Below, piece after piece: positions 4,548 through 61,168 of a stretch of DNA of 61,935 bases. Made by a program: the position numbers and the translations under genes. The notes under the pieces were generated by a model that was not told the DNA's origin, ran no database searches, and worked only from the letters and a program-made list of their open reading frames with translations. Source of the stretch: a virus (lineage: Duplodnaviria > Caudoviricetes); the IMG/VR virus record IMGVR_UViG_3300021976_000013, positions 1-61,935 of that record, one strand, 5' to 3'. The stretch's first letter is position 1. Each line of letters begins with the position of its first letter.

Positions 4548-4558
4548 GTGATACCTTG

Positions 4559-4740
4559 GGTCCGGCAGGTAGGCAGACCGAAAGTCACCGACTGCCGGAC
4601 CGACAACTACATGATCAATCCAGAAGGGCAGCCTGCTCGGCACCCTCTGACACGTAAGAGACAACCGTGATCACTACCGGTTGAGACACGGTGGGCAGAC
4701 CGACAGTCACCCCCAATCCATGATCAATCTGGAGAGGGTG
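4559..4740 (+). promoter_or_regulatory. structured capsid leader with three repeated stem-loops
   Basis: GGCAG-(AC/CC)-N5-(GT/GG)-CACC three times (4572, 4627, 4694); CATGATCAATC twice. Confidence 0.55.
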
Positions 4741-20537: not shown

Positions 20538-20777
20538 ATGACTATGACCCGCATGACTAACGATGAGTTCGGCGACAAGGTGGGTTGCGACTTCACCATG
20601 GCGTCTCGACTCAAGAACGGTCAGCGGCTACCGTCTCGGGAACTTCTGGAGCGGATCGTGGAAGCGTACGATCTTGACGCGAACGAAGCTCTTGCGGCCA
20701 CCCGAGCCGGTAGAGCCGCATTCAAGGAATACCTTCGGGCGAACGTGTTCGAGGCTTCCACACGAACGGACCCCTGA
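20538..20777 (+). CDS. XRE-family HTH regulator (candidate repressor/Cro)
   Basis: EFGDKVGC....SRL.NGQR.PS...L..I HTH; operator on its own promoter. Confidence 0.85.
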   Translation: MTMTRMTNDEFGDKVGCDFTMASRLKNGQRLPSRELLERIVEAYDLDANEALAATRAGRAAFKEYLRANVFEASTRTDP

Positions 20778-27620: not shown

Positions 27621-28601
27621 ATGATCATGTACGGAACGCTCAAGGTTCACCCGTTCGCGGACAAGTTTCCGCTGATCGAAGGCACCGAGCTGGACGAGCT
27701 GGCCGAAGACATCAAGGTCAACGGGCTCCGCGAGGCGATCTTGGTTTCCAACGACGGAACCACGATCATCGACGGCCGGAACCGCTACCGCGCTTGCGAG
27801 GTTGCCGGGGTCGAGCCCAAGATCAAGCCGCTCGCCAAGACGGTCAAAGAGTCTGACGTCATCGAGCTGATCATGTCGGTCAACGTCCAGCGGCGTCACC
27901 TTTCGCAGTCTCAGCGGGCCGTGCTCGGCACCGAGTACCTGGAGTTCACCGCGAAGATCGCGGCGGAAGCCAAGCTCGCTGGCCAGAAGAAAGGAGCGGC
28001 TACCACCAACGCCAAGGCGAACGGCAACGGCGACGGTGACGAGTCGGATGGCACGCAAGCGGACGGCGACAAGCCCAAGCGCAAGCGTGGCGTTCGCGCC
28101 ACCGACCAGGCGGGCAAGCTGGTCGGCACGTCGGGTCGTTCGGTCGCTCGCGCGGCTCGGGTGAAGGCAGTGGATCCCGATCTTGCCGACGACGTTCTCA
28201 AGGGCACCGTGACTCTCGCGGGCGCAGAGGACAAGGTCCGTCGGGCGACCGGTGGTGGCGCGAAGCGCAAGCCGCGCGTGGCCACCGACCGCAGCGAGAA
28301 GCCGCTTGAGGCTCGGGCTCTGTACGAGCTGAACGCGCGCATCGGCGGTCTTGCTCGGTTCATCGAAGACCACAACGGGCTCGGCGCGTCGGTCACTTCG
28401 GCAATCGCTGGAGAGGCCGTGTTCGGTCAGAACATGCGCGCTCTGCGAGTGGCGCTTCGGGATTTCCAGCAGGAGATCAGCGAGCGCGCGGCCGAAGGTA
28501 GCGAGAGCAAGACGGACGACGGTCAGCCGACCGGCACCGACGACCAGCCGACCGGCACCGAGCCGACCGGCGACGAGAACCCGGAGATCACGACCGCATG
28601 A
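27621..28601 (+). CDS. ParB/Srx N-terminal domain protein with HTH
   Basis: L.EDIK.NGL.E.I, IDGRNRYRAC (Arg patch), N.QRRHL and A...GTS...V.RA HTH. Confidence 0.85.
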   Translation: MIMYGTLKVHPFADKFPLIEGTELDELAEDIKVNGLREAILVSNDGTTIIDGRNRYRACEVAGVEPKIKPLAKTVKESDVIELIMSVNVQRRHLSQSQRAVLGTEYLEFTAKIAAEAKLAGQKKGAATTNAKANGNGDGDESDGTQADGDKPKRKRGVRATDQAGKLVGTSGRSVARAARVKAVDPDLADDVLKGTVTLAGAEDKVRRATGGGAKRKPRVATDRSEKPLEARALYELNARIGGLARFIEDHNGLGASVTSAIAGEAVFGQNMRALRVALRDFQQEISERAAEGSESKTDDGQPTGTDDQPTGTEPTGDENPEITTA

Positions 28602-29437
28602 CCGACGTGGGAATCACCCTCAAAGGAACCGAGCCGACATGGATCGCGCTCGGCAAGCTGATCGTAGATCAGCGCGTTCAACGGCAGGCGCTGAACATGG
28701 CGCACGTGTACAAGATCGCCGAAAGCTTCGATCCGGAAGCGTTCAAGCTGGTCGCGGTCAACTACCGGCCGAAGGATGAGATCTACGGCGACGGTTCGTA
28801 CGCGATCATGGACGGGGCTCACCGATGTGAGGCTCTCCGAGAGATCGGGTTCGGACCTGACCAGCTCGTGCCGTGCGACCTTCACAGCGGGCTCACGCTG
28901 GCCGAAGAGGCGGCGATGTTCGACGAGCTGAACCATGTCAAGGTCGTCGGTGCGGCCGACCGGTTCCGGGTGTCTGTGATGGCGGGCGACCCGCTGGCGA
29001 ACGAGATCGACAAGATCGTAACGGCGCTCGGCTGGAAGATCGGCCGGGCACACACCAAGGATCCGATGATCTCCTGTGTCACAGCTCTCAAGGCTGTGTA
29101 CAGCGGACCGACCGGCGACGAGCCGATGCCGGGTGTCCTGTACGACACGCTGAACACGATCACCCGAGCGTGGGGGCATGATCCTCGCGCTGTGCGGGGC
29201 TCGCTGGTATTGGGGCTCGGCAACCTGATCAGGCGGGATGCCACGAACAAGAACCTTGATCTTAAGGGGCTCGTCCCACGGCTGGCCGCTTACAAGGGCG
29301 GTTACGACGGGATCATAGGCACCGCTCGCGCGGTCGCTTCGGGATCGAAGAAGATCAACGACGCGGTTTCATTCGTGATCGCGGACGTCCACAACAAGGG
29401 CCGCCAGACCAGAAAGCTTGATCGCTGGCTGGTCTGA
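28598..29437 (+). CDS. ParB-like domain protein (DUF6551-like)
   Basis: L.VD..VQR, V..R, Y.IMDG.HR and EA..F..LN motifs; ATGA coupling. Confidence 0.75.
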   Translation: MTDVGITLKGTEPTWIALGKLIVDQRVQRQALNMAHVYKIAESFDPEAFKLVAVNYRPKDEIYGDGSYAIMDGAHRCEALREIGFGPDQLVPCDLHSGLTLAEEAAMFDELNHVKVVGAADRFRVSVMAGDPLANEIDKIVTALGWKIGRAHTKDPMISCVTALKAVYSGPTGDEPMPGVLYDTLNTITRAWGHDPRAVRGSLVLGLGNLIRRDATNKNLDLKGLVPRLAAYKGGYDGIIGTARAVASGSKKINDAVSFVIADVHNKGRQTRKLDRWLV

Positions 29438-29455
29438 TCATAGATCAAACTCATA

Positions 29456-29483
29456 CCGGGCTGACTCTTCGGAGTCAGCCCGG
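29456..29483 (+). terminator. UUCG-capped hairpin
   Basis: CCGGGCTGACTC-TTCG-GAGTCAGCCCGG. Confidence 0.6.
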
Positions 29484-29504
29484 ATCGGTATCGAAGGAAA
29501 AGAC

Positions 29505-29729
29505 ATGACCATGACTGCCGTGAAAGTCAAGAAATTCGATCACCGAAAGATCGGTGATCTTCGCCGCGCGCGTGGCTGGACTCAGGTTCAGCTCGCGGAT
29601 GAGTCGGGCATTCATATCGATTCGATCAGGGAGTACGAGCGCGGTCGGTCGTATCCGAGCGTGCCCCGGCTGCTGATCTTGGTTGAGGCTCTCGGCTGTC
29701 AAGTCGAAGATCTCACTACGGTGGCCTGA
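29505..29729 (+). CDS. XRE-family HTH protein
   Basis: LR..RGWTQ.QLA..SGI....I..YERG...P....L...LG. Confidence 0.9.
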   Translation: MTMTAVKVKKFDHRKIGDLRRARGWTQVQLADESGIHIDSIREYERGRSYPSVPRLLILVEALGCQVEDLTTVA

Positions 29730-32406: not shown

Positions 32407-34152
32407 ATGCGACACTTGGCATTCGACCTTGAGACGTGGCAGGCCGACGAGATCTTTCGTCAGCCTGACTTCGTCCGGCTCGGTGCGTACGGCACCGCTA
32501 AGTGGCATCGCATGTCCACCGACGGCAACGTGATCGTAGACGCACTACACAAGGGCATCGCGGACGGCCGCGTTCTGACCGGTCACAACATCTGTGATTT
32601 CGATCTTGTGGCGCTGGCTCGCTGGCACGGGCTCAAGCTTCCAGAGCTTCGTGATCACATTGCCGATACCTACCTGCTCGCGTTGATCAACGATCCCCCG
32701 TTGTCTGGTGTGGAGGGCCGTTCGATGATGCCGCGTGGGTACTACGGGCTGAACGAGACGTGCGAGCACTACGGGATGCCGGGGAAGACCGACTCGGCTA
32801 AGCGGCTGGCCAAGCAATGGGGCGGGTTCGAGAAGATCCCTACCGATGATCCGGAGTTCCGGCATTACCTCGCGGGTGACATAAGCGCGTCAAGCCGCTT
32901 GATCCAGGCCATGCCACCGATGACCGACTACGCCAAACGGGATATGAACGTCGGGCTGATCATGTCTCAGATGAGACTGAACGGCTTTCGGGTGGACGTC
33001 GAAGAGTTGCATCACGCGCTGGCCGACCAGGTAATCCGTAAGACCGGACACATAGCCGAGCTTGCCGAGATCACCGGTATGCCTACCGGCCGGACGGTCG
33101 GCGTGCGCAACCCGCGTTACGAAGAGTTCGCCTCTCCGCTGGCCACTGACGTGGGCAAGCAGGCGATCATCAAGGCGTTCTTTATCGAGGGGATCAAGGA
33201 AGGTGCGCTTCCGACCACTCCAGGTACCGGCAAGCTGGCTACCGGCCGGGAGCCGATGCTTGAGCTGAAAGAGAAGATCATCAAGTACGGCGGCAACCCG
33301 AAGCTTGAGCGGATGATCGATCTGATCATCTCCGTCGTCGGTGAGCGGACCGTGTACGACACGATCAACAGCACGCGAGTGGACGATCGAGTGCATCCGT
33401 CGATCAAGCCGTCTCAGGCTTCCGGCCGGTGGTCCATCACCGGGCCTGGCCTGACGGTGCTCGGCAAGCGCGGCGGCCGTCATGTCGAACGTCGGGTGTT
33501 GCTTCCCGAGATCGGTCACTCGAATATGTCGGTTGACCTTCGTCAGGTGGACGCGCGAGCGGTGGCAGCACACAGCCAAGATCGCAACTATATGCGGATC
33601 TTCCAAGAGGGTAGAGATCTTCATACGGCTAACGCGATCACCGCTTTCGGAGACGGGAGCAGGCGAGAGGACGCCAAGCCGGTCGGTCACGGATGGAACT
33701 ACGGTCTGTCGATCCGGCGCATGATCGAGATGGGGCTCACCGAGTTAGCCGCTTGCGCGTTCGACGAGAACATGAGGGCGAATCATCCGGGTGTGATCCG
33801 CTGGCAGAACAACGTTCGGCAGATCGCTCGCGACGGCGGCTTGCTCGACAACGGGTGGGGACGGATGATGCGCCCCGATCCCCGCTTCGCCTACACGCAA
33901 GCTCCGGCTCTGGTCGGCCAAGGGTGTACGCGGGACATCTTGGCCGAAGGTCTGCTCAGGCTTCCGGTGGAGATCTGGCCGATGCTTCGGGTTGTCGTGC
34001 ATGACGAGATCGTTATGTCGGTGCCGACCGAGAGCTATCACGACGTCGCGGAAGTGGTTCGAGAGGCACTCTCGTTCGATTTCCGGGGGGTCCCGATCGA
34101 GTGTGACGTCTCAAAGCCGGGCTCGACGTGGGCAGCGGTATACGACAAGTGA
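32407..34152 (+). CDS. polA: family A DNA polymerase with 3'-5' exonuclease
   Basis: FDLET, GHN..FD, SGRWS; motif A D..QVD.R, motif B R..AK....G..YG, motif C VHDE. Confidence 0.93.
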   Translation: MRHLAFDLETWQADEIFRQPDFVRLGAYGTAKWHRMSTDGNVIVDALHKGIADGRVLTGHNICDFDLVALARWHGLKLPELRDHIADTYLLALINDPPLSGVEGRSMMPRGYYGLNETCEHYGMPGKTDSAKRLAKQWGGFEKIPTDDPEFRHYLAGDISASSRLIQAMPPMTDYAKRDMNVGLIMSQMRLNGFRVDVEELHHALADQVIRKTGHIAELAEITGMPTGRTVGVRNPRYEEFASPLATDVGKQAIIKAFFIEGIKEGALPTTPGTGKLATGREPMLELKEKIIKYGGNPKLERMIDLIISVVGERTVYDTINSTRVDDRVHPSIKPSQASGRWSITGPGLTVLGKRGGRHVERRVLLPEIGHSNMSVDLRQVDARAVAAHSQDRNYMRIFQEGRDLHTANAITAFGDGSRREDAKPVGHGWNYGLSIRRMIEMGLTELAACAFDENMRANHPGVIRWQNNVRQIARDGGLLDNGWGRMMRPDPRFAYTQAPALVGQGCTRDILAEGLLRLPVEIWPMLRVVVHDEIVMSVPTESYHDVAEVVREALSFDFRGVPIECDVSKPGSTWAAVYDK

Positions 34153-42912: not shown

Positions 42913-43209
42913 CTATCCGAAGCAATCGCAGTCGTCCGCGTGGCCGGGCTGTTCGGTCGAGCCGTTGATCAGCGAGTCCACGAACGCGAATGCGTTCTCG
43001 GGAGAGTCGTCGTCCGGCCAACACTCGGGAGCCTGGTTAAGGATCTTCTGGAGCGCGTCGTCGTGCCGAGCCTGAAGATCGCTCAGGAGGTCGTACTTGA
43101 TCGCGAGGGTGTTGAGCCGGAACTGAAGATCGAGATTCTCGCTGGCAAGCTCTCGGATCTTGTCGGCAGCGAGAGTCTTGTAAGCCACGTAATCACTGTC
43201 AGAGATCAT
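42913..43209 (-). CDS. hypothetical coiled-coil protein
   Basis: ORF in the leftward operon. Confidence 0.55.
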   Translation of the reverse strand: MISDSDYVAYKTLAADKIRELASENLDLQFRLNTLAIKYDLLSDLQARHDDALQKILNQAPECWPDDDSPENAFAFVDSLINGSTEQPGHADDCDCFG

Positions 43210-43281
43210 GGGGTGTGAGCCTTCCCGACTGCCCCTGACGATCAGGGGCAGTCTGTTGGTTGACGCTTATGTGTCAGTAGG

Positions 43282-43629
43282 TCATGAAGCTTTTTTGATC
43301 TTCCGGTGCCGCTCGATGCGCTCGCGGCGGTTCTCTTCTTTGGTATCCGGCTGGATACATGCCGGGTTGAGGCAGATCGATATCCCACAGCGGTGGGACC
43401 ATTCGCAGCCCTCCGGAAGCGGGCCGTGGAAAGCCTCGCCGACGACCACATGGCCGCGACGGGTGCGCTTGATCTCTTCGACCCATACCGACGGGTAGCC
43501 AGGGTTGCACTGGTTTTGCTTACCGCCACCCCGTGACGTGCCACCTGTCCAGATCCAACAGCCGTCCGGGTTGATCACGCACTTCGCGAAGATCTTTCGC
43601 ATGGTCGGACCTTCGGTTGAGATGATCAT
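43282..43629 (-). CDS. HNH (His-Cys box-like) endonuclease
   Basis: GCWIWTG, GYP, H....E...GP.P.G...H.C....C.NP...T..EN. Confidence 0.8.
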   Translation of the reverse strand: MIISTEGPTMRKIFAKCVINPDGCWIWTGGTSRGGGKQNQCNPGYPSVWVEEIKRTRRGHVVVGEAFHGPLPEGCEWSHRCGISICLNPACIQPDTKEENRRERIERHRKIKKAS

Positions 43630-44018
43630 CACTCGTCCCTGTCGTTGATCCCGTTGGCGTTGTTGTCGGTGACTCCGAACCATGCCAGCGGCGGACCGTC
43701 AGAGCATGGCCCCAGGTCTTCCCACGGGCACGCTGGCGGCCGTTCGGCCGGTGCTTGGTGTCCGAGTAGCCGCTTGAGAACGTGGTCCGTCTTGGGCGTA
43801 CTCAGGGCTTCGGACGCGGCACGGCCGACCTTGGAACCGGCCTTGCCTGCCTCGCGACCGATCGTCTGGTGACCCTCTACCAGAGTGCCGAGATCGTTCG
43901 AGGTCTTGCAGCCTGCGATGAACGCGCCGACGATCAGCATGACCACCGAGAGCCGCTTGAGCTTGCGAGTGATCTTGACCCGGTGGGACTTCGTGATCTT
44001 GGGGAGCTTGATCTTCAT
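43629..44018 (-). CDS. putative lipoprotein
   Basis: Basic N-terminus, hydrophobic core, IAGC lipobox. Confidence 0.6.
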   Translation of the reverse strand: MKIKLPKITKSHRVKITRKLKRLSVVMLIVGAFIAGCKTSNDLGTLVEGHQTIGREAGKAGSKVGRAASEALSTPKTDHVLKRLLGHQAPAERPPACPWEDLGPCSDGPPLAWFGVTDNNANGINDRDE

Positions 44019-47454: not shown

Positions 47455-48057
47455 CTAGATCTCTCGTCGGCCGAGCGGACCCATGCCATCAAGTCGGCCG
47501 GACCAGCGGTAGAACGATGATCCTTCATGCGGGTCCGAGCTTCCGCGCCATTCGATGTTGGTCCGATTGATCATTCCGACTCCGAACAGTTCCGTGTGCT
47601 GGTAGCCACCCCGGAACATGACCTTCTGCCGGTGAAGATCGTTGATCTCGACGGCACCCGGACCGACGGCGATGATCTCCACTCGCCACGATGCTTGACC
47701 GGGGATCTTGGCGTACATGCCAGCATGATCGGGAACGTATTGCGGCTTGATCTTGTGTTGACAGATCTTGCATCGGTACGTGATCTTCTGGCGGTCCCAC
47801 GGTCCGTCGTCCGGATCGTTCTCGTGAATGATCTTGACGTGCTTGTCGAGCGTCGGCAGCGTGTATTGATCATCTCCGAACGGGTCGTAGCCGAACGCGT
47901 GGAAGTGGCCGGAAGGATCTACGGCCGACCAGTCGGGATCCGGCTTGACTGAACCCATGCTCGGGACGTCGATCATCGGCTGTTCGTAGATCATGGTGAC
48001 GTCGGTCATAAGATCTTTCTCATTGATCAGCGCGTAGTCCATCGAAGCGACTTGCAT
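47455..48057 (-). CDS. hypothetical protein
   Basis: ORF with CxxC and D..GH.H. Confidence 0.6.
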   Translation of the reverse strand: MQVASMDYALINEKDLMTDVTMIYEQPMIDVPSMGSVKPDPDWSAVDPSGHFHAFGYDPFGDDQYTLPTLDKHVKIIHENDPDDGPWDRQKITYRCKICQHKIKPQYVPDHAGMYAKIPGQASWRVEIIAVGPGAVEINDLHRQKVMFRGGYQHTELFGVGMINRTNIEWRGSSDPHEGSSFYRWSGRLDGMGPLGRREI

Positions 48058-48059
48058 GA

Positions 48060-48728
48060 TCAGAATCCTCTCGCGAATTGGATGATCTGGTAAGCCAGCG
48101 TGACCAAGATCCCGATCACGACGGCTACGAAAAAGATCTTCTCTCCTGTCTTGCCGGTGGTGAAGAGATCGAGCGTGTACCGGCGCTTGGACAGTGGCCA
48201 GAAGATCGGGCACCCTCGATCGGTGAGGCAGTCACCGGCGATGTGCACGAACGCGCCAAGCATGAGTGCGGCTGGCACGATCCGGAGATCGATATCCGTG
48301 AGCCACACCACCAAGATCACTATGACTGCGGCGGCTATGTCGTCGATCCATCCGGGGATCTTGGCGAGTCGGACCACTGCGGCCACCGAGAGGACCATGA
48401 GCCAGCACAACGCGATCAAGCCAGCGGGTGAATGCCGGTAGATCAAGGCCATTTGCGCGCCGATGCCGAGCACGACCACGAACAAGATCGAATGTGTGCC
48501 ATGCCGGTGCGGGCCGAACACGAAAATGATCAATCTGCTGGATACCCACGAGAGCGGTCCGAGTGATCGCGTCATCGTCGCCTTGTGATGATCAAGGTCG
48601 TTGATCATCGCTGCCCCGGTAGTGATCAGTAGGCCGACCAGAACGCTGGTCATGCCAAGATCCCAAAGCAACGTGGCACCCCCGAATGCGAGGGTGCCAG
48701 TAGCCGCGTGCGTTCGACCAAGAGCCAC
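48060..48728 (-). CDS. membrane-bound metal-dependent hydrolase (YdjM-like)
   Basis: TH, D.DH, HR..THS and H..GD.LT..G.P.FWP motifs; multiple TMs. Confidence 0.85.
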   Translation of the reverse strand: MALGRTHAATGTLAFGGATLLWDLGMTSVLVGLLITTGAAMINDLDHHKATMTRSLGPLSWVSSRLIIFVFGPHRHGTHSILFVVVLGIGAQMALIYRHSPAGLIALCWLMVLSVAAVVRLAKIPGWIDDIAAAVIVILVVWLTDIDLRIVPAALMLGAFVHIAGDCLTDRGCPIFWPLSKRRYTLDLFTTGKTGEKIFFVAVVIGILVTLAYQIIQFARGF

Positions 48729-49157
48729 TTACGTGGTCTTCAGGATCGTTGGGCCTTCAGAAGCCGGGTTGTGCTCCAGATCCGGGTACGCGCCCGAATC
48801 GAACGAGTCTACGAAGCGCACCACGCTGCGCGGGTAGTCTATGATCACTCCGGCACCGTGGTAGTCGAGATCCAGCCACGCATGACCGGCGAGCACGGTC
48901 CAGTCGGCACCGAGGATGGATCTTGCGAGCCGGGCGATCGGGCACTCTGCGGAGCTGCCCACAAGCCCCTTGATTCCCCTCGCTGCGAGACACCCGGCGA
49001 CGATGTCAGCCGTTTCACCGAGTGAGCCGAGCACTTCGCGAAGGGTCTGGAGCTGGGCGGTCTGAACGTCGGTGAGCATGGTGATACTCCTGTCCGGGAT
49101 GTGGATCATTGCGGGTGGGTTGAATCTTGGGCCGACACGGAGTGGTGTGATCTTCAT
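48729..49157 (-). CDS. hypothetical protein
   Basis: L...GI.G.....CPIA...FV..FD.G.YP.L motif. Confidence 0.65.
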   Translation of the reverse strand: MKITPLRVGPRFNPPAMIHIPDRSITMLTDVQTAQLQTLREVLGSLGETADIVAGCLAARGIKGLVGSSAECPIARLARSILGADWTVLAGHAWLDLDYHGAGVIIDYPRSVVRFVDSFDSGAYPDLEHNPASEGPTILKTT

Positions 49158-49444
49158 CAGTTCTTAGAAGATCGTCCGGTCACGCCGTTGATGTGATCGC
49201 GAAGCTCGTCATGGGACAGCTTGCGCATTTCTGTCGCTTCCTTGATCTTGTCGGCGATCAGCGCAGCCATCTCGGCACGTACCAAGTCGGCACCGTGATG
49301 CTGACCGTAGTGGTACGTGCCAAGTCCCCACGTACCAAGCGCGGCCATCGTCAGGACCACAGTCCAGACCGGGCCGGTTTGGTACGTGGCGGCGGTCGCG
49401 AGCGCGAGACCGATAGCTAGGAGGATCTTGGACATCCTGCACAT
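49157..49444 (-). CDS. 2-TM membrane protein
   Basis: RBS GGAAGG; two hydrophobic helices. Confidence 0.6.
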   Translation of the reverse strand: MCRMSKILLAIGLALATAATYQTGPVWTVVLTMAALGTWGLGTYHYGQHHGADLVRAEMAALIADKIKEATEMRKLSHDELRDHINGVTGRSSKN

Positions 49445-49494
49445 GATCGAACTTCCTTCCGTTTGAAGACGTACAGTGCCCACTGTTTCACACC

Positions 49495-49591
49495 CTTGCC
49501 ATCCGGGCAAGGTACCTATCAGGTACGCTTGACTACAGGGCAAGGGTGATCCATACTGGAGGCTTACGTACCTGATTGACACACAGACAAG
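49495..49591. promoter_or_regulatory. divergent promoter region with three 17-bp operators
   Basis: Operators at 49495, 49528 and 49575; TTGACT-17-CATACT promoter for the tra/spd operon. Confidence 0.75.
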
Positions 49592-49601
49592 GCGGTGAGC
49601 A

Positions 49602-49898
49602 ATGGCTAAGGATCTTGAGCAGCGGGGGCGTGGCACGGTGGCACCGATCGCTACCGGTGGCGACCAGCTCATGCCCTTCGTACCGGCACCGCGTTCCAGT
49701 GGCTCGGGTGCCACTGATAAGGACTACCTAGCGGTCCGTCCCCCAGCAAACGGGCGTATCCAGGCAAAATGGTCGGCGATCATCACGCCGTACCGGGCTA
49801 CGCTGCACTTCCGGTTGTGGATCACGTTCACCTGGTGGCGAGTGATGCTCTTGGTATCCGTGATCATCGGAGTGATCGTCCTGATCAAGATCGCATAA
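49602..49898 (+). CDS. small membrane protein (Spd-like by context)
   Basis: C-terminal TM; first gene of the tra/spd operon. Confidence 0.55.
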   Translation: MAKDLEQRGRGTVAPIATGGDQLMPFVPAPRSSGSGATDKDYLAVRPPANGRIQAKWSAIITPYRATLHFRLWITFTWWRVMLLVSVIIGVIVLIKIA

Positions 49899-49923
49899 AC
49901 GTTCCAGAAAGGAACACAAGATC

Positions 49924-51060
49924 ATGAGCATTCTCAGCAAGCCGAAGCCCAAGCCGCTATCGGTTAAGATCAAGGAAGCTGCGCAGCTTGCCGAGCTTGA
50001 CGCGGTCGAGCGGGCCGCACAGTTCAAGCGCGAGCAGGAAGAGGCCGAGCGGAACGTCTGGCGTGCGGAGCAGGCCAAAGCGGCACGTACCGAAACGGCC
50101 GAGCTGACCAAGTCGGCACGTGCCGCGCGGCTGGCCGAGATGGTTCCGTACATTCCACTGATCTTGGTGAACGTTGCGGCGATCACCGGTCAGTACGGGT
50201 GGGCGATCGACAACCTGACGGAGATCGGCAGCGACACGCATGATCCCGTTCGGTGGCTGGCCGCCGCTCTGTTCGCCTTCACGGCTGAATCGATCGCTCT
50301 GTTCCTTCAGTACTACGCGAACCGAGCGTTGCGGAACCGGGACAGCGCGTTGACCTTGTACCTGTCGGCCTTCCTGGTCGCCGGTCTGGTCGCGACGGTC
50401 AACTACTCGCACTGGTCAACGCACAGTTCGGACAAAGATCTCTTGGGATCTCCGACTCCGACGGCCGTGATCTTCGCCCTCTGTTCGCTGGCTTCCCCGT
50501 GGCTCTGGCGGATCCACAACCGGGCTGAGTACCGGGAGGTTCTGAAGAAAGCCGGGGAGATCGACACTCGCGCGGTCAAGCTCTCGCTAGCTCGCAAGAT
50601 CATGCACCCGTACCGGTCTTTCATGGTCATCTGGAATTCGTCGTGGAAGGGTGACCAGACTCCGGCCGAAGCGGTCGCGGCATGGGACAAGATCCATGAC
50701 GAGAGGGTCGCTCGCAAGATCGAGCGGAAGCGTCAGGCGCGGGCCGACAAGGCGGCTGAGAGGGCCGCTAAGGCAGAGCCGGTACCGGCAGACCAGGAAG
50801 CCGTGATCAAGCCGCAGGCACCGGCTCAGCGCGCTCCCAAGGCACCTGCGGGCGTAGGCGTGGGACCGAGCCATCCGAAGTGGGCGGAAGGCGTTCGGAT
50901 CTACGAAGCGAGCAAGGCAGGTCCGGGACGTTCGCTCAGTCAGCGTGATCTAGCAGGGCATCTCAACATGAGCAATAGAGATCTTGCTACCGCGATCAAG
51001 AAATTCGTAGACGAAAGAGATCAAAATGCGATCAACAACGTTGCGCCTTCGTCCCCCTGA
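49924..51060 (+). CDS. SpdB2/DUF2637-like spread protein
   Basis: N-terminal coiled coil, four TM helices, Pro/Ala linker, C-terminal HTH (SQRDLA..L.MS). Confidence 0.65.
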   Translation: MSILSKPKPKPLSVKIKEAAQLAELDAVERAAQFKREQEEAERNVWRAEQAKAARTETAELTKSARAARLAEMVPYIPLILVNVAAITGQYGWAIDNLTEIGSDTHDPVRWLAAALFAFTAESIALFLQYYANRALRNRDSALTLYLSAFLVAGLVATVNYSHWSTHSSDKDLLGSPTPTAVIFALCSLASPWLWRIHNRAEYREVLKKAGEIDTRAVKLSLARKIMHPYRSFMVIWNSSWKGDQTPAEAVAAWDKIHDERVARKIERKRQARADKAAERAAKAEPVPADQEAVIKPQAPAQRAPKAPAGVGVGPSHPKWAEGVRIYEASKAGPGRSLSQRDLAGHLNMSNRDLATAIKKFVDERDQNAINNVAPSSP

Positions 51061-52867
51061 TCGGACGACGAAGCGGCAACCGAAGGGCGCTTGGGACGAA
51101 CTGTCCCGAGCGCTGTTTCGCTATCGAGTCGAGTTCTTTCCGATCTTGCTGGCCTTTTGGCTCTATGTGATCACTGCGGTCATGGGACCTCGCCTGCCTT
51201 GGGTAGTACCTGGCACGCTGGCGCTAGGTGCCATCCTGACGTACCAATTCGGTGGCCGGTGGAACCTGCCAAGGTTCCATCTGGCACGCCGGGAGCGTGC
51301 CTATGCGGCGGCCGTGATGGCATGCCTTGGCACGTGGGCATGGTTCGCAGTGGCACTCTCCGAGAGTGCCAAACCGAGCCTGCGATGGACCCTGATCTTG
51401 CTTGGCATGTGCGTGCCACTCTCGATTCCGTGGCTTTGGCACCGACGGATCCAAGGTTCCGTATTGGTCACGTTCGAGCCGATGCGCTCGGGTGCCAGTC
51501 GGCGCGAAAGTCGGGACTGGAATCGCTGGCACCGGGAGATGACCCACCGTGCGCGCGAAGTGGTCGCGTCGTGGGATGGCATGATCCATGGCACGTCCGC
51601 GCTAGGTTCCAAGCTGGTCGCGATCCATTTCGACGCATGGTCTGTGGAGTGCTCCGTCCGTCTGGCACATGCCAGGGTGGCGGAAGACTTCACCGAGCTA
51701 CGGCTACGGCGGCTTGAGTCTGCCTTCATGGCCAAGCGGGACAGCGCTCGGACTGACTACGCGACCGGTAAGGGTGCCAGCGCTCGGGACGCCAAGATCA
51801 AGTTCATGTTCCAGGATCCGCATGCCGAACCGATCATCCCGACGGATGATGATCTCACTCCGGACATGGATCTGACCGTGGACATCGGGCGGTTCGAGAA
51901 CAACATTCACGTGATCATCGACTTGATCCATACGCTGGTGGCCGGTGCTTCCGGAGCTGGCAAGTCGGCGATCATCAACGCGATCATGCGTGGCTTGATC
52001 CGTAAGCCGCACGTGGCGATCGTAGGGATCGATCTCAAGCCGGGCGGCCTTGAGCTTGGCAAATGGGAAGAGGCGATGTACGCGCTCGCGACGACCGGGC
52101 CGCAGGCCAAGACCCTGCTCACGGGGATCTTGAACGGCATCGGCCGACGCGGCGAGATCATGAAAGCTCGCGGGATCCGGAAGTGGGTCGCGACCGAGGC
52201 AGAGCCGTTCGTGGTCTTGATCATTGACGAAGTCCAAGCGCTGAAAGAGTTCCGGCTGTTCGCCACGCTGACAAAGATCAGTGAGCTGAGCAGGGCATAC
52301 GGCTTCGCGATGATCGTCGCTACTCAACACCCGAAAGATTCCAGCGTGCCGACGGGAGCAATCGCGAACTGCACGCAGCGGATCGGACTTCAGTGCAACG
52401 CGAGCACGGCCGAGCGGCTGATCTTCGATGACAACGCGACTCGGGAGGGCTGGCGGTTGACCAAGCTTCCGGGTGATCGAGAGGGAACCTTCCTGGTCAA
52501 GAGCAAGCGGCACCGTAGGCCGATGCGCGCTCGCTGCCACTGGCTTGACGATCACCATGTCGAGCGGGAAGCAAGATCGTTCGCAGCGACGACGACAGCG
52601 ATCGATCCGGGCACGTGGGGGGATGATCTCTTGGCGATCGATCCGCCCGACGAAGGGACGGAGATCATCGATGTTCAGGTGATCGTCGAGAACGGGCCGG
52701 AAGATGTGATCATGACATTGATCGGTTCCGGCCGGGCTCGGACGCCTTCCAAGATCAGTGAGCTGTCTCAGATCCCTGTACGCACAGTGAATGTCCTGCT
52801 CAAAAAGCTGGCGTCCGAGGGAAAGGTGATCCAAGACGGAGCACGGAAACCATGGTCGCTAACGTGA
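51026..52867 (+). CDS. TraB-like FtsK/SpoIIIE DNA translocase
   Basis: N-terminal TMs; H.LVAGASGAGKS, IDLK.G.EL, LIIDE, RA.G...VATQ.P; C-terminal winged HTH. Confidence 0.9.
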   Translation: MRSTTLRLRPPDRTTKRQPKGAWDELSRALFRYRVEFFPILLAFWLYVITAVMGPRLPWVVPGTLALGAILTYQFGGRWNLPRFHLARRERAYAAAVMACLGTWAWFAVALSESAKPSLRWTLILLGMCVPLSIPWLWHRRIQGSVLVTFEPMRSGASRRESRDWNRWHREMTHRAREVVASWDGMIHGTSALGSKLVAIHFDAWSVECSVRLAHARVAEDFTELRLRRLESAFMAKRDSARTDYATGKGASARDAKIKFMFQDPHAEPIIPTDDDLTPDMDLTVDIGRFENNIHVIIDLIHTLVAGASGAGKSAIINAIMRGLIRKPHVAIVGIDLKPGGLELGKWEEAMYALATTGPQAKTLLTGILNGIGRRGEIMKARGIRKWVATEAEPFVVLIIDEVQALKEFRLFATLTKISELSRAYGFAMIVATQHPKDSSVPTGAIANCTQRIGLQCNASTAERLIFDDNATREGWRLTKLPGDREGTFLVKSKRHRRPMRARCHWLDDHHVEREARSFAATTTAIDPGTWGDDLLAIDPPDEGTEIIDVQVIVENGPEDVIMTLIGSGRARTPSKISELSQIPVRTVNVLLKKLASEGKVIQDGARKPWSLT

Positions 52868-52975
52868 GTTTCCGCAGGTCAGAGACCCGGACCCCTTGAT
52901 CGTCATGAGGTGGTCCGGGTGTACCCAACTAGGGGTGTAGCCCCTTAGAATGCAGCTCAGGGCCGTACAGAGCCA
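52868..52975 (+). repeat. dispersed ~100-bp element, copy F
   Basis: GTTTCCGCAGGTCAGAGAC...CTCAGGGCCGTACAGAGCCA starting right after the traB stop. Confidence 0.85.
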
Positions 52976-53059
52976 TGTGACAGGCTGTAGCGCTTGCCAG
53001 CACGGCAAGATGTGAGATGATGAGATCACACGTTCCGATCCCGAGGGAAAGAGTCGATC

Positions 53060-53569
53060 ATGGGCATAACAAAGATCGTTCTGGACATCCGCAACCTGGC
53101 TGACCGGTGGTCGTACGATTCCCAGAATCACGCGGAGACCAAGATCTCCGTAGTCAAGGCGGTCGGCGAGCTTCGTCAGCTCGCGTATGACATCGAGTAC
53201 GGCATCAAGATCGATTCGGTGGACTGGGACGGGTCCATCCCCGAGCCGGTCAAGATCGCGTGGTGGCAGCGCCAGCTCGTCTCAAAGGATCTTGGCCTTA
53301 GCGTGGGGTCGGCCATCGGATTCACGATCTTCACAGTCTTCGTGATCATGGGCTTTAAGATCGACACTGCCTTCCTGGCCTTCGCGATCATTGCTCTGAT
53401 CATGGCCGAGAAAATGTTCGGGATCTGGGAGCCGGAGAACGACGAGATCGATTCAGGTCCGATCTTGAGCCGAGAGCAAGTGATCATGCTCGGTGGCTGG
53501 CTCAACGACAAGATCAGCCAGGCCAAGAGCAAGATCAAGCCTAAGAAATCCGATCTTGAGGAGGAGTAA
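53060..53569 (+). CDS. 2-TM membrane protein
   Basis: Operator at 52993; two TMs. Confidence 0.65.
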   Translation: MGITKIVLDIRNLADRWSYDSQNHAETKISVVKAVGELRQLAYDIEYGIKIDSVDWDGSIPEPVKIAWWQRQLVSKDLGLSVGSAIGFTIFTVFVIMGFKIDTAFLAFAIIALIMAEKMFGIWEPENDEIDSGPILSREQVIMLGGWLNDKISQAKSKIKPKKSDLEEE

Positions 53570-54322
53570 TCGATCATGAGTTCTGTTGCCTCGCGCGGGC
53601 GTGCGCACACGCACGCTCGTGCAGGCGCAAGCGCAAGCGCACGCAATATGTGACGCGCGCATGACGTGGGAAAATGACCGGAAATAAGCGCAAATGATCT
53701 TGAAACAACTGATCGCTTGCGCTTATTTTGATCAAGAAAATCGGGGCTGGAGGATCAAGATGATCTTAAAGAACAGGAGTCAGCAGCCCGAGCACCAACA
53801 TTTTGTGATCACGTGCGGACCCTGCGGCTATCAGTTCCCATCGTGCGGGATACCGTGTTTCGCGATCTGTCCGGCATGTGTGACGATCTTGACTCTCTGG
53901 GAGGATTCGTGATCGAAACGATCTTGAGTAGGCTGGCTCGGCGAATCCACATCTGGTGGATCTTCCGGAAGCGGCAACGGACCAACATCGAAGGACCTGG
54001 CCAAATGATGTGGATCATGGGCCGATGGTATGTGATCACGATGATCGAATCTGATCGTCGGCTCGGTGAAGCAAGCTTGGTGACCGTAAGAGGTCAAGAT
54101 CCTATGAGTTACTACGACCGGCATTGGATCAAGAGGAGTGATCTTCGTGGGTGAACACAGCCGCATGCCCGACAGTCGGTGGGATCTGCTCTGGCAGATC
54201 ACGCAGAATCCGATGAAGGCTCAGACAGCACGTACCAAGATCGAATATTGGTGCCGTCTCGGTACGCTGGTGGCACTGATCGTTATCACTCTGGCACTCG
54301 GTACCTACGGAGTGGTACAGAC

Positions 54323-54544
54323 ATGGCTGTGATCGGCGAGCGGGCCAAGCTGGCACGTGCCATCAGAGAGCTAGACACGTTCCTCCGTATGTGCCTCGCG
54401 GAACGTACCAAGACGGAGGATCCGGTACGTAGAGCCGAAGTGGTACGGCAGATAGATGCCGCTTTGGATCGCCGGTCACGTGCCATGTGGGCACTCAAGT
54501 GGGACCAATTCAAAGTGGCACACGAGACGGACGTACCAAAATGA
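54323..54544 (+). CDS. hypothetical protein
   Basis: Coupled to 54541; RBS GGAG. Confidence 0.5.
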   Translation: MAVIGERAKLARAIRELDTFLRMCLAERTKTEDPVRRAEVVRQIDAALDRRSRAMWALKWDQFKVAHETDVPK

Positions 54545-55368
54545 CCCTCTATCCAGAATGGTTCATCGGCGGGCCGTGGCACGGCAAGGACAAGCGAACG
54601 GTCTGCCCGAATCTTCAGGGCATGGTCACGGTGGCTGTGTCGCCAAGTCTTCAGGAGATCTTCAGTCAGCCTGACCCGAACATGGAAATGGGCGTTGATC
54701 ATATCCACTACGTACCGAGATCGTTCGCGGTCTTCGGTCAGCGGCTCATAGTCTGGCTCACCGAAGAGGACGCATCTTCGATCATTGGCACGGCCGGAAC
54801 CGGCGCGCTGGTCAATCCGATAGATCGCGGCCAAGAGCTGATGCGGATGATCGGAGAATTGATCATGGCCCCGCATGCCGTCGTCGGTGGACATGCCGGG
54901 TACGACGTGAGCGCCATAGCCGAGCAACGTTCCAGCGAGTGGCAAGAGCAGATAGATCGGGAACGGTGGGCCGATCAACGGTACGCGGGCACGATCGACG
55001 AGTACCGGCGCACGATCTCTCAGCAGCGGGCTCAGATCGATCAACTCTCCCGGCAGGTTCGGCGGGAGTCCATGGGTGATCAGTGGCGCTACTTCCAAGA
55101 CACAGAGTCGGTACCGGCGATCAAAATGGAGCTGGCGGCCGACGGGTTGTGGTGGGGAGTTGATCAAGCCAACGTTACAACGTATCTCGATCAAGGTGAC
55201 GGTACCGAGGAGTCTCCCCCGGCATGGGTCGCCACGGCACAAACGGATCATGGGCCGATCACCGGCTACGGTACGAACGTGAAAGCGGCGCTGATCGCTA
55301 TGGCGGCCGACGCGTGTCAGGTGTACGCACGCATGATCGACATATCCGAGAAACCGAGGATGCGATGA
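54541..55368 (+). CDS. hypothetical protein
   Basis: FIGGP.HG start motif; coiled coil. Confidence 0.65.
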   Translation: MTLYPEWFIGGPWHGKDKRTVCPNLQGMVTVAVSPSLQEIFSQPDPNMEMGVDHIHYVPRSFAVFGQRLIVWLTEEDASSIIGTAGTGALVNPIDRGQELMRMIGELIMAPHAVVGGHAGYDVSAIAEQRSSEWQEQIDRERWADQRYAGTIDEYRRTISQQRAQIDQLSRQVRRESMGDQWRYFQDTESVPAIKMELAADGLWWGVDQANVTTYLDQGDGTEESPPAWVATAQTDHGPITGYGTNVKAALIAMAADACQVYARMIDISEKPRMR

Positions 55369-55778
55369 TCCAAGAGAAAGAGTGGGTGCTAGCCGAAGAG
55401 TGCATCGAGGTTCATGATCCACGTCTGTACGCTCGGGAGACGGACGGCGGATGGATGGACGACCCACGGAGCATGCATCACCACTGGATGATCTTGCGCC
55501 GACGGAACCCCCACTGCTCGAAATGTGGAGGGCGCGGCGGCGGGCCGTTCGGTCATGAAGCCAGCGAGTGCACATGGACGCATCCGGCCGAGAAGATCGA
55601 AGTAGTTCCGTCCGAAGAGCTGGAGATCAAGTTCCCGATCTTCGTCGCCAATCTCGTGATCGTGGACGCGGGCAGCGAAGAGGTCTTGCTTGACCTTAAG
55701 ATGTCAGGTCGGCATCGGGTAGTTCTCGATCTTCTGACTCTCGCGGCCGACACGGTGAAAGAGGACATCGAAAGATGA
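55365..55778 (+). CDS. hypothetical protein with Zn-finger
   Basis: C..CGG.G......C; ATGA coupling. Confidence 0.55.
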   Translation: MIQEKEWVLAEECIEVHDPRLYARETDGGWMDDPRSMHHHWMILRRRNPHCSKCGGRGGGPFGHEASECTWTHPAEKIEVVPSEELEIKFPIFVANLVIVDAGSEEVLLDLKMSGRHRVVLDLLTLAADTVKEDIER

Positions 55779-58603: not shown

Positions 58604-59305
58604 ATGCCTGCGGCTTTCGTCAGTTCGGTTAACACGGCTATGGCGGCGACGGCGTCCACTACAGTGGCTAAGCCTGCCAGCGTGGTATCCGGGACGCTCT
58701 TGGTCGCTATGCACAGTGCCACAACGTCTCTTGTGGCGGACATGCTGGTCACTGGTGGCGGGACATGGAACAGCACTCAAGCACTCTCGCTGACCACTAA
58801 TGCACTGTCTTGCCGAATCTCATGGCGGTTCGCTGGTGGATCTGAACCGGCCACATATACCGTGACGCATACGTCTACTAGCTCAAACGGCGTTATGACC
58901 ATGGTCGCTATCTCGGGTGCCAACCCTTCCATGATCAATCCGGTATACGGAACCGTAGCCAGCGCTACTAGCGCAGCGACGACGATCACCTGTCCGACAG
59001 CAACACCGGTTGCGGCGGACGATCTACAGCTCCGGTATGCCTGCGGATCCGGTGGCGCTTCCTGTACATGGTCATTCGCGGCTGAAAGTCCAGTGGCGAC
59101 GTCGCTGACCAATATCCAGGTCGCCACACTCCGGGCTAACCAGCTCGTCTCATGGCGTCAGCTTGCCAGCGGTGCGGCTGTCGGCACCAACGTGGCGACC
59201 AGCACATTCTCACAGACCAACCGGATCGCTCACACGATTTTGATCCCGTCTGCTCCCGCTGCGGCGGCTGTGATCCCGGAACTGATCATGGGCCGGTACT
59301 CATGA
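58604..59305 (+). CDS. virion beta-sandwich protein (domain shared with the tail-tip insertion)
   Basis: V.KP..V.SG and W..AGGSEP.TY motifs. Confidence 0.7.
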   Translation: MPAAFVSSVNTAMAATASTTVAKPASVVSGTLLVAMHSATTSLVADMLVTGGGTWNSTQALSLTTNALSCRISWRFAGGSEPATYTVTHTSTSSNGVMTMVAISGANPSMINPVYGTVASATSAATTITCPTATPVAADDLQLRYACGSGGASCTWSFAAESPVATSLTNIQVATLRANQLVSWRQLASGAAVGTNVATSTFSQTNRIAHTILIPSAPAAAAVIPELIMGRYS

Positions 59306-60375
59306 GCATCCGGTATACGCAGAGCCGACCAGCGGCGACGATCACTCCTCGATCTCGGATCATCACCCCACCAAGCACAGGACCGGCAACGATCTCCGGT
59401 GCGGCAACCTTGGTCGGCTCGGGTGCCCTGTCGGCGAGTGCGTTGGATGTTCAAGAGGGCGCGGCAACGATAGCGGGTAAAGGCACGCTCAGTGCCGCCC
59501 CTGTGGACGTCCAGCTAGGCTCTACGGCTCTGTCAGGCATGGGTACGCTCACCGGTACCGGGCTCAATGTTGATCTAGCTAGCGTGGCTCTCAGCGGCGC
59601 GGGAGCCATGATCTCTAGCGGTCTTAATGTTGACGTCGCAGCGTCAACGCTGGCGGGTAAGGGTACGCTCACCGGCTCGGCTCTCGATACGATTCCCGCG
59701 ACGGGTGCCTACTCTGGTGCGGGTACCTTGATCGCTAGTGCTTTGCCGATCATACAAGCCGGATCATCCTTCGCTTCTGCCGGTACCTTGATCGGCACGG
59801 CGCTCGATGTGGTCATCGCGTCCAGCTCCCTGGCCGGTATGGGCACGATGACCGCTTCAAGCTCCGGAGTCACGGGCGCGGCAACACTGGCCGGTGCTGG
59901 CACTCTGACGGCGAACGCTGTCATAATTCAGGTGTCGAGCGCTGACCTCTCTGGGCGTGGCTCGTTCACGTCGGCTGGCTTGATCTCCCAAATCGCAAGC
60001 GTGTTCCTCTCTGGGCGAGGGACACTGACCGGATCAGCGCTCGACACAATCCCGAGTACGGCAACCTTGCTCGGCATGGGCACGCTGGTAGCCAGCGGAT
60101 CCATACCAGGGGCGATCATCGCGGGTGCCGCTACCCTGGTAGGCACCGGGTATCTCACGGCATCGGGCAGTCTTCCGACTGACGCGGTAGCTTACGATCT
60201 GTCCGGCTCGGTAGTGATCACAAGCAGGGTGTCAGGTGTGGTCGTGATCGTCGGCGAGGTGAGCGGAACCCTACTGATCATGGGCAGGGTGAGCGGCTCG
60301 GAAGTGATCACATCTCGGCTGTCCTCTGCGACTCCGGTTGCTGCCTCTCGGATCACTGCGACTGTGGGAGCGTGA
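59302..60375 (+). CDS. fibre-like repeat protein
   Basis: About a dozen ~20-21 aa repeats of L.G.GTL.(A/G)S. Confidence 0.7.
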   Translation: MSIRYTQSRPAATITPRSRIITPPSTGPATISGAATLVGSGALSASALDVQEGAATIAGKGTLSAAPVDVQLGSTALSGMGTLTGTGLNVDLASVALSGAGAMISSGLNVDVAASTLAGKGTLTGSALDTIPATGAYSGAGTLIASALPIIQAGSSFASAGTLIGTALDVVIASSSLAGMGTMTASSSGVTGAATLAGAGTLTANAVIIQVSSADLSGRGSFTSAGLISQIASVFLSGRGTLTGSALDTIPSTATLLGMGTLVASGSIPGAIIAGAATLVGTGYLTASGSLPTDAVAYDLSGSVVITSRVSGVVVIVGEVSGTLLIMGRVSGSEVITSRLSSATPVAASRITATVGA

Positions 60376-60721: not shown

Positions 60722-60862
60722 GAGCCAATGATCCAGAAGTTTCGAGAGGCCAGGTAACAAGATGATCATGATACTCCAGATCATCGGATGCACCGTGGCA
60801 TGTGCGCTGATCATCGTCGGTGCTATCGCCACGCTGACCTTGATCGATGATTGGCTGAGACG

Positions 60863-61168
60863 GTGAGCGACGCTGGATTGCGGGGTCACGCTTATCGTGA
60901 AATCCGGGTATGGATGAAAGCCAACCTTCCTTGGCAGTGTCATCGATGCGGGCTACCGATCAGCCGAGAGATCACGGCACGCAACCCCCGGCATCGGATG
61001 GCCTGGTCTGCTGATCACTACCCCATCCCACGCAGTGCGGGCGGGCAGAGTACCAAGGACAATCTCATGCCAGCGCACAACGGATGTAACTCTGATGCGG
61101 GTAACGCACTCAAGGCAGAGCGCATCGAAGAGGTTGCTAACCCACGGTCCCGAGTGTGGGGGATCTAG
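60863..61168 (+). CDS. HNH endonuclease (packaging-associated type)
   Basis: C..CG..I, S.DH..P...GG...NL..AH..CN...G motifs; near the genome end. Confidence 0.85.
   Translation: MSDAGLRGHAYREIRVWMKANLPWQCHRCGLPISREITARNPRHRMAWSADHYPIPRSAGGQSTKDNLMPAHNGCNSDAGNALKAERIEEVANPRSRVWGI

Follow-up and report, generated by a model that had tools for sequence, protein, structure and literature searches.

In Streptomyces conjugation, the translocase TraB binds the 8-bp repeats of the locus clt through its C-terminus (PMC4447253, PMC5133688), and in the text available to us clt is described as a set of 8-bp direct repeats (PMC4447253). The available part of a second paper gives the TraB recognition sequence (TRS) of plasmid pSVH1 as GACCCGGA and reports 25 chromosomal clusters of four such sequences (PMC5133688), and the excerpt at hand of a third treats TraB specificity and describes no clt for pSAM2 (PMC9513070). 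SpdB2, as far as the accessible text describes it, has a coiled-coil N-terminus, membrane segments and a C-terminal domain (Thoma et al. 2015, PMC4447253), and SpdB2 homologues occur on actinophages (PMC4447253). FtsK-like genes are also widespread in actinophages, and the literature gives no function for them, at least in the accessible portions of the two reports that deal with them (PMC11536984; bioRxiv 10.1101/2024.02.16.580700). Here we describe a 61,935-bp stretch of phage DNA (IMG/VR record IMGVR_UViG_3300021976_000013, the whole of which is referred to as the window) in which the word TGGYAC, or its complement GTRCCA, forms three arrays, A, B and C, that flank and enter a pair of genes coding for an SpdB-like membrane protein and a TraB/FtsK-like DNA translocase. 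The arrays are almost certainly real and selected at the DNA level. The full-text literature searched, outside which most subscription-journal papers lie, contained no description of clt-like arrays in phages.

A preliminary description of this DNA had reported 12 copies of the word downstream of the translocase gene, one pair of them forming a palindrome, and all of this was confirmed. These sites constitute array C (54232..54582, both strands), which lies 1.4 kb downstream of the translocase gene and has seven sites on the plus strand and five on the minus strand (54232-, 54271+, 54292+, 54313+, 54351+, 54357-, 54405-, 54441+, 54480-, 54516+, 54533- and 54577+). The palindrome TGGCACGTGCCA occupies 54351-54362, and a copy of it that agrees in 10 of 12 positions is found at 54474-54485. 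The extension TGGYACGT is present in 6 of the 12 sites, and longer words recur as well: CACGTGCCAT occurs twice (54354 and 54477), both times inside the 72-aa open reading frame (ORF) at 54326-54544, and the 11-mer ACGTACCAAGA/AAA occurs three times (54230, 54403 and 54531). The copies of this 11-mer at 54403 and 54531 are 128 bp apart and are therefore read in different frames, being translated as RTK and VPK. When the ~126-bp units of the array were aligned, the site positions corresponded and the spacers were not conserved. A looser enrichment of GGYAC extends past array C to ~55.3 kb. Among 40 listed of 242 strain differences from other soil samples, none fell in array C.

Arrays A and B consist of the same word and are additional to the cluster reported before. 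Array A (49279..49713; 8 TGGYAC sites, 4 + / 4 -) flanks both sides of a 160-bp gap between divergent small membrane-protein genes and includes the palindrome TGGTACGTGCCA at 49311-49322. Array B (51211..51779; 14 TGGYAC sites, 8 + / 6 -) lies in the 5′ third of the translocase gene, where its sites occupy all three codon phases on both strands, and it contains a hairpin-forming pair, TGGCACTCT-CCG-AGAGTGCCA, at 51351-51371. In the window as a whole TGGYAC was present in 84 copies, compared to 43.4 +/- 6.7 in 100 dinucleotide shuffles (maximum 61; 0/100 reached 84), and 39 of the 84 copies fell within 7 kb (48000-55000). Outside 48-55 kb the rate was 0.82 per kb, which agrees with the one copy per kb that had been expected by chance, and the fullest 351-bp span held 2 copies; with a background expectation of 0.29 per 351-bp span, the Poisson probability of at least 12 copies is 5e-16. 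The arrays are limited to the surroundings of the module, at 48.2-55.3 kb. Their sites are in mixed orientation and showed no helical phasing (Rayleigh z ≤4). Taken together, the results show that the candidate clt-like locus proposed for array C is real as an array but, being only one of three, cannot be singled out as 'the' clt; its sites are in mixed orientation, in contrast to the 8-bp direct repeats described for clt.

The array counts were compared with two codon-preserving nulls, a check that had been suggested for array C. For this array the ORFs 54138-54332, 54326-54544 and 54541-55368 were kept and 2000 trials were run per null. The result showed a mean of 3.7 sites (maximum 8) when synonymous codons were permuted within genes and a mean of 1.8 (maximum 6) when codons were resampled from phage usage, and 0/2000 trials reached the observed 12 in either null. 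For array B the means were 2.7 and 2.6, and 0/2000 reached the observed 14. These results bear on the possibility that the arrays have no binding function and arose as a side effect of amino-acid composition, codon bias, slippage or duplication. Protein sequence does contribute, as the shuffled means for array C (1.8-3.7) exceed the background expectation; in addition, 10 of the 12 array C sites fall into codon phase 1 of the ORF that contains them, two ORFs of differing frame being involved, the sites recur at ~123-128 bp, which hints at an old duplication, and many of the arrays of high-G+C relatives are located in low-complexity linkers, which are plausible places for slippage. However, the enrichment survived the shuffles and the sites lie on both strands, as the preliminary description had anticipated in arguing that amino-acid composition is insufficient, and four genes of the relatives G001 and G002 (see below) likewise exceeded every shuffle. 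Tandem Repeats Finder found no repeat in arrays A, B or C, the spacers are not conserved, and array B is spread over all three phases and both strands. Homologues of the neighbouring YdjM-like gene hold 6 to 34 sites, so the YdjM protein does not demand them. The phase-1 excess suggests that real coding sequences fit sites into the cheapest phase. An origin without binding function is therefore hardly credible and, for the window, close to refuted. By comparison, the earlier proposal that coding sequence here carries an array of binding sites for a protein agrees with the shuffles, the use of both strands and the recurrence of the same extended words in different frames, and the arrays are probably protein-binding sites tied to the SpdB-like/TraB-like module.

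Several further features of the arrays were recorded. In the runs X4 and X6, from another soil sample, the phage is ~95-97% identical overall and 13-17% divergent across 50890-51702, and one X4 contig has 136 other letters in place of 121 bp (window 51246-51366); the part of the translocase gene that holds array B is therefore a strain-level hypervariable spot. Inverted-repeat site pairs with hairpin or cruciform potential are present at 51351-51371, 48674-48699 and 54516-54538, two of which carried a terminator-like flag on the minus strand. Predicted promoter and terminator counts in 48-56.5 kb were at shuffle level. The -24 element of sigma-54 promoters is TGGCAC, and sigma-54 promoters were therefore considered and rejected: the pattern of TGGYAC with TTGC 5 bp later had no exact match in the window, and with up to 1 mismatch it occurred 8 times compared to 4.3 expected, with 1 of the 8 within the arrays. 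A local GGYAC peak (12 per 500 bp) was also seen at 59152-60375, in a Gly/Ala/Thr/Leu-rich 407-aa ORF with G(T/A)GTL-type peptides; this peak looks like a product of protein repeats, so that some GGYAC peaks are not site arrays.

The translocase gene (51026..52867, +) encodes a protein of 613 aa with two hydrophobic segments (residues 34-55 and 93-112), a motor domain at ~290-520 and a predicted C-terminal winged helix at ~558-613. The motor domain matched Pfam PF01580 (30.5 bits compared to a cut-off of 24, E 3.1e-7), the protein matched phrog_1358 (E 2.2e-35), and a profile of 40 translocase homologues matched FtsK PDB 2ius (E 1.2e-20). Its best NCBIfam model was plasmid_TraB (NF041214; E 7.6e-13, residues 301-510), with a score of 47.8 bits compared to the equivalog cut-off of 800. 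AlphaFold2 modelling of the C-terminus (7 sequences) gave three helices (H54-64, H70-77 and H81-93) and two strands (E97-99 and E106-108) with a predicted local distance difference test score (pLDDT) of 82-92, and the last ~57 residues are therefore predicted to form a three-helix, two-strand winged helix. Foldseek matched this model to the winged helices of MntR, DtxR, MarR, IclR and AspA (best E 4e-3, none ≤1e-3), with FtsK gamma not among the 50 matches listed, and a sequence profile pointed to MarR-type and Z-alpha domains (E ~2e-3). The SpdB-like gene immediately upstream (49924..51060, +; 378 aa) contains no TGGYAC site. Its product has a charged N-terminus followed by hydrophobic segments and a C-terminal helix-turn-helix (HTH) at ~315-374, and residues 315-374 resemble sigma-70 region 4. 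In the ESM Atlas its nearest clusters were those of DUF2637 (score 0.92), and clusters with SpdB_N and HTH_SpdB_C (0.84) were returned as a lead only. The name traB used in the preliminary description is thus supported by the motor domain, the best-scoring model, the winged helix and the SpdB-like gene upstream; it does not fit the carrier, which is a phage and not a plasmid or an actinomycete integrative and conjugative element (AICE).

The module resembles the TraB/clt system of Streptomyces in three respects: an FtsK-family motor with a membrane-associated N-terminus and what is predicted to be a C-terminal winged helix, an SpdB-like neighbour accompanied by a run of small overlapping genes, and a 6-8-bp word that clusters on the same replicon, within the translocase gene or close to it, and is lineage-dependent. 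It differs from it in being carried by a tailed phage with terminase, portal, tape-measure and DNA-polymerase genes, in having three arrays of 8, 14 and 12 copies in both orientations with irregular spacing, and in that the word does not appear to co-vary with the recognition helix among the few sequences compared. Because of the low equivalog score, this lack of covariation and the type of carrier, we describe the module as working like TraB/clt, not as a proven member of that family. The SpdB-like protein of the window, with its charged N-terminus, hydrophobic segments and C-terminal domain, is similar in layout to SpdB2 as described in the available text, the coiled coil not being part of the comparison.

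Two other known systems invite comparison. For SpdA2/sps of pIJ101, the accessible text describes sps as a 12-bp palindrome present in 2-3 copies in SpdA2's own gene (PMC4170104). Judged against that text, the phage is alike in having a repeated 12-bp palindrome inside a small gene of a tra/spd neighbourhood and in that the site is visible as a recurring peptide (ARAI and SRAM in the phage, SRDD/E in SpdA2), but it differs in having dozens of mostly single half-sites over 6 kb. No homology of the 72-aa ORF to SpdA was seen in Pfam, PHROGs or NCBIfam, which may hold no SpdA model. The FtsK orienting polar sequences (KOPS) and the SpoIIIE recognition sequences (SRS) are short words that are read by a winged-helix (gamma) domain and load the pump on DNA, and both are dispersed over the genome and strand-polar. 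The phage likewise combines short words with an FtsK-family pump that has a predicted winged helix, whereas its sites are locally clustered and non-polar (+/-: C 7/5, B 8/6, A 4/4). In gp10 of the cultured Streptomyces phage Gilgamesh the motor domain is homologous (33% identity over residues 287-512); unlike the window, Gilgamesh has no array beside this gene, and other lineages have other words, often in the linker of the upstream gene.

A protein search for relatives of the translocase gave 56 proteins, of which ~40 were full-length (~600 aa), metagenomic and 32-67% identical. The closest of them, P0002-P0032 (45-67% identity), came mostly from Logan assemblies, and the comparison of DNA covered full-length relatives of 30-35% identity, namely L002-L008 from viral contigs and L055 from a metagenome, with L004 and L008 repeating the lineages of L002 and L007. 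No relative emerged when viral contigs were scanned with a single protein, the metagenome scan yielded one full-length relative, L055, among 80 loci kept, and the 185,579-species genome collection yielded no full-length relative among 80 loci kept. Five distinct viral records, G001-G005, were taken whole and, like the window (G000), searched without bias for 5- and 6-mers that cluster locally. The result showed that GGTAC was within the top eight clustered 5-mers in 6/6 records (rank 1 in G001, rank 2 in G002 and ranks 3-7 in the others) and that in 5/5 relatives the densest GGTAC window was no farther than ~2.5 kb from the FtsK-like gene, or else inside the neighbouring YdjM-like gene. In G001 the densest array covers the YdjM-like gene and the small genes upstream; in G002 arrays occupy the YdjM-like gene, the linker of the SpdB-like gene, the first third of the FtsK-like gene and an intergenic region 0.9-1.5 kb downstream; in G003 the array is upstream of the FtsK-like ORF and in its 5′ part; and in G004 and G005 weak arrays lie by the YdjM-like gene. 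In codon permutation, 0/2000 trials each reached the observed count for YdjM of G001 (34 sites compared to 14.1), YdjM of G002 (17 compared to 7.4) and the FtsK-like gene of G002 (41 compared to 21.9), and the enrichment was not significant for G004, G005, the FtsK-like gene of G001 and YdjM of the window. The word is TGGYACGT in the window and G003, CC-GGTAC-CGG in G001 and L055, and intermediate in G002. Because the densest arrays adjoin the homologous gene in distant relatives, the arrays are a conserved DNA-level feature of this phage module, with flanking bases that vary by lineage. The FtsK-like protein was the only window ORF with a tblastn match in all four strong-array genomes, a result that is biased in that the relatives were found via this protein; in G003 the other matches to the window were an XRE HTH and one tail-like ORF.

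The relatives also showed features of their own. In G002 (the record of L006), an extensive intergenic region (3950-4560), located downstream of the FtsK-like gene, has ~23 GGYAC sites in 250 bp, followed by three to four ~90-bp units, each with the 10-bp palindrome GCAACGTTGC beside TTGACG-like hexamers; by their sequence, these units look like repeated promoter-operator units. G002 alone had sites with a period of ~10.75-11 bp, which arises partly from tandem-like repeats. G003 (the record of L007) is 24,063 bp long with direct terminal repeats, and in it TGGYACGT adjoins the FtsK-like gene; an XRE HTH and a 472-aa P-loop Rep-like gene are present in it as well, and few window genes are matched there. 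Instead of a full phage, G003 may represent a satellite or a plasmid-like element. Of the additional GGTAC arrays of G001, which are far from the module (32730-33506 and 43050-43900), one lies in a glycosyltransferase-like gene among structural genes, and another spans a Cro-like HTH gene, the homologue of window 20538-20777, and its convergent neighbour. The glycosyltransferase-like gene has 19 sites compared to 7.8 in codon permutation (0/2000).

A wider survey comprised 54 phage FtsK-like loci, eight of them the full-length relatives and 46 with motor-domain homology only. A top 6-mer cluster with P < 1e-8 was found in 39/54 loci, and 31 of these 39 clusters were at most 2.6 kb upstream of the ATPase core, where ~21% would be expected by chance; as many of the loci are close kin, the independent number is nearer a dozen lineages. 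The words were lineage-specific (CTGCCA, CGAACA, CGAAGC, GCATCA, CGGTCC, CGGACC, CGGACG, CGCTCC and CGGACA) and in most lineages occurred in two or three codon phases. Codon shuffles were beaten at both loci scored, L039 (18 compared to 2.7-4.0) and L046 (51 compared to 14.6-19.6). Many of the survey arrays are inside the low-complexity linker of the upstream SpdB-like gene, and replication slippage could be the source of the DNA repeats in such linkers. In the two Streptomyces-type phages L039 (3393-4691; CGCTCC, 18 copies) and L046 (3185-4693; CGGACC, 51 copies), the SpdB-like linker and C-terminal domain have been swapped along with the embedded array. Large BE-type phages, including the cultured Gilgamesh, have no such array beside the FtsK-like gene.

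The best single reading, which we hold tentatively, is that the arrays are clt-like docking or loading sites for this translocase system. The arrays, their selection and conservation and the domains encoded beside them are observations, from which we infer protein binding, a binder and a part in translocation as follows. The word is threaded through the genes that flank and include the SpdB-like gene and that of the TraB/FtsK-like double-strand-DNA translocase, and a module protein bearing an HTH would bind the many monomer-sized sites. The first candidate binder would be the C-terminal winged helix of the translocase, whose modelled fold and position are suitable, and the second the C-terminal HTH of the SpdB-like protein. 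Through such binding the hexameric pump, which is anchored in the membrane, would gather on the DNA of the phage itself, and we propose that phage DNA would in this way be the DNA that is engaged and pumped, the same logic as that of clt/TRS in Streptomyces conjugation. As for the second candidate, SpdB-like homologues are present in G001, G004 and G005 and, by ORF reading, in G002, and the SpdB-like HTH is conserved among G000, G001, G002 and G004; from sequence comparison it could read a conserved GGTAC core. G003 has the exact word of the window, and no SpdB-like gene was found there by tblastn and ORF reading.

Several observations weigh against docking by the translocase. The recognition helix is VRTVNVLLKKL in the window and QTNVDLHLKQL in G003, both of which have TGGYACGT, and the helix of the window is nearer to ERTVKLFVRRL of L055, whose word is CGGTACC; the word therefore does not co-vary with the recognition helix in these 7 sequences, and no covariation was found when two more were included (7 + 2 sequences). 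Of the parallel drawn before with clt repeats and the winged helix of TraB, the predicted fold and the placement of arrays beside the gene in relatives stood, and conservation of the helix with the word did not. The FtsK-like proteins of L039 and L046 are 91.7% identical, yet their words differ and their arrays are in unrelated SpdB-like linkers. No clustered word is common to eight Streptomyces-type loci whose winged helices are near-identical; GACGAC clusters there, but weakly. The arrays of G004 and G005 are weak and not significant, Gilgamesh, a Streptomyces phage, lacks an array beside its FtsK-like gene, and G001 has additional GGTAC arrays distant from the module (32.7-33.5 kb and 43.05-43.9 kb). 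The sites are in mixed orientation and without helical phasing, whereas the described clt loci are direct repeats. Finally, the word has the form T..G in G000, G002 and G003 (57-60% G+C) and C..C in G001, G004, G005 and L055 (63-66%); as the variant tracks genome G+C, a host-encoded reader or plain composition would also fit.

This last point leads to host-factor or centromere-like sites, which would recruit actinobacterial FtsK/SpoIIIE or a partition or nucleoid protein, so that phage DNA is positioned or segregated into daughter compartments or spores, with the translocase module linked or cooperating. The arrays, with their short repeats in mixed orientation, are reminiscent of plasmid centromeres. 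Such a role would account for the GGTAC core being kept although the module proteins are only 30-35% identical and their recognition helices differ, for a flanking-base variant that follows G+C as a proxy for host clade, and for the same word in G000 and G003, which have almost no genes in common; AspA, an archaeal centromere-binding winged helix, was among the fold matches. However, the window ORFs scanned with Pfam included no ParA/ParM-type NTPase, a weak ParB_N match at 27621-28601 being below the cut-off, and a host factor alone leaves the consistent placement beside the FtsK-like gene unexplained. We consider a host-factor role quite unlikely.

The position of array A raises another alternative, in which a phage HTH regulator coats a divergent promoter region and its neighbours and thereby silences or times a toxic (kil-like) module. 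The divergent promoter region between the YdjM-like and SpdB-FtsK-like genes is spanned by array A and, in G001, G002, G004 and G005, by the densest array, and perfect 12-bp palindromes are present at 49311 and 54351; these palindromes, TGGYACGTRCCA, would be high-affinity dimer sites and the single words auxiliary sites. Candidate regulators would be the XRE proteins 29418-29729 and 20538-20777, the C-terminal HTH of the SpdB-like protein or the 72-aa product of 54326-54544. As noted, one G001 array spans the Cro-like homologue of 20538-20777, and in G003 the homologue of 29418-29729 is 0.8 kb from the array and divergently transcribed. There are precedents in the available text of two papers: traB-traR of plasmids is a kil-kor pair (PMC4447253), and SpdA2 binds 12-bp palindromes within its own gene (PMC4170104). 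However, single words dominate, with 2 perfect palindromes among 39 sites, and 12-14 sites are spread over 350-570 bp of coding DNA, with no promoter match anywhere near array C. Among the window ORFs scanned with Pfam, none matched a regulator of the GntR/TraR type, and each XRE protein was common to only some of the array-bearing genomes, neither homologue being detected in all of them. Operator arrays are on balance unlikely, although they deserve serious consideration. Docking, operator and host-factor roles are not mutually exclusive, and it is distinctly improbable that none of these readings holds.

If the arrays are loading sites, phages would join plasmids and AICEs in Streptomyces-type double-strand-DNA transfer, with consequences for the persistence and spread of their genomes in hosts that are multicellular or form spores. 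A larger claim is that some soil actinophages have a full conjugation-style unit, made up of an SpdB-like partner, a TraB-like pump and clt-like arrays, and that this unit moves or segregates the phage genome without virions to neighbouring cells, hyphal compartments or spores; we regard this joint claim as doubtful. Were it true, it would represent a capsid-independent second route of phage spread, with the arrays as an address label directing the pump to phage DNA. The tie between the arrays and the gene pair would offer a concrete handle, a cis element with a short list of candidate readers.

The genes around the pair were also examined. Upstream are a YdjM-family membrane hydrolase-like gene (48060..48728, -), which holds 4 TGGCAC sites and whose homologues in G001 and G002 are full of GGTAC sites, a small membrane-protein gene (49157..49441, -; 94 aa) that holds 5 array A sites, and a second small membrane-protein gene with a MAKD... 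start (49602..49898, +; 98 aa), a gene type found in the same place in G001 and G002. Downstream of the translocase are small genes with overlapping stops and starts, an arrangement reminiscent of spd operons. The 64-aa ORF (54138..54332, +) has a hydrophobic C-terminus (35-64) and contains the sites 54232-54313; the 72-aa ORF (54326..54544, +) is helical-looking, begins with a start that overlaps the stop of the preceding ORF and contains 7 sites; and the 275-aa ORF (54541..55368, +), joined to it by an ATGA start/stop overlap, contains the sites 54577 and 54786 and a GGYAC tail to ~55270. The 64-aa ORF had no family match in Pfam or NCBIfam, the 72-aa ORF none in Pfam, PHROGs or NCBIfam, and the 275-aa ORF had no family match.

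The IMG/VR record, which is the entire window, is linear, with a completeness estimate of 85% and a G+C content of ~59.5%. It contains genes for structure and packaging (large terminase, portal, prohead protease, major head protein and tape-measure protein), lysis and replication (holin, endolysin-like protein, DNA polymerase, primase and helicases) and further genes for a RecE-type exonuclease, a WhiB-HTH fusion, two XRE-type HTH proteins and HNH nucleases. By this gene content, the window is a siphovirus-like soil phage of an actinobacterium. No tRNA genes were found in the window, a megablast search of the phage collection gave no match that would indicate a close DNA relative, and there were no RNA datasets among the matches listed for 49000-55500. 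Near-identical or related DNA was present in soil-metagenome runs of five studies. HNH endonuclease genes are located at 64-771 and 60851-61168, near both record ends and adjoining the terminase, and from the sequence this placement agrees with a cos-type, HNH-assisted packaging module whose parts are separated because the genome is represented as linear.

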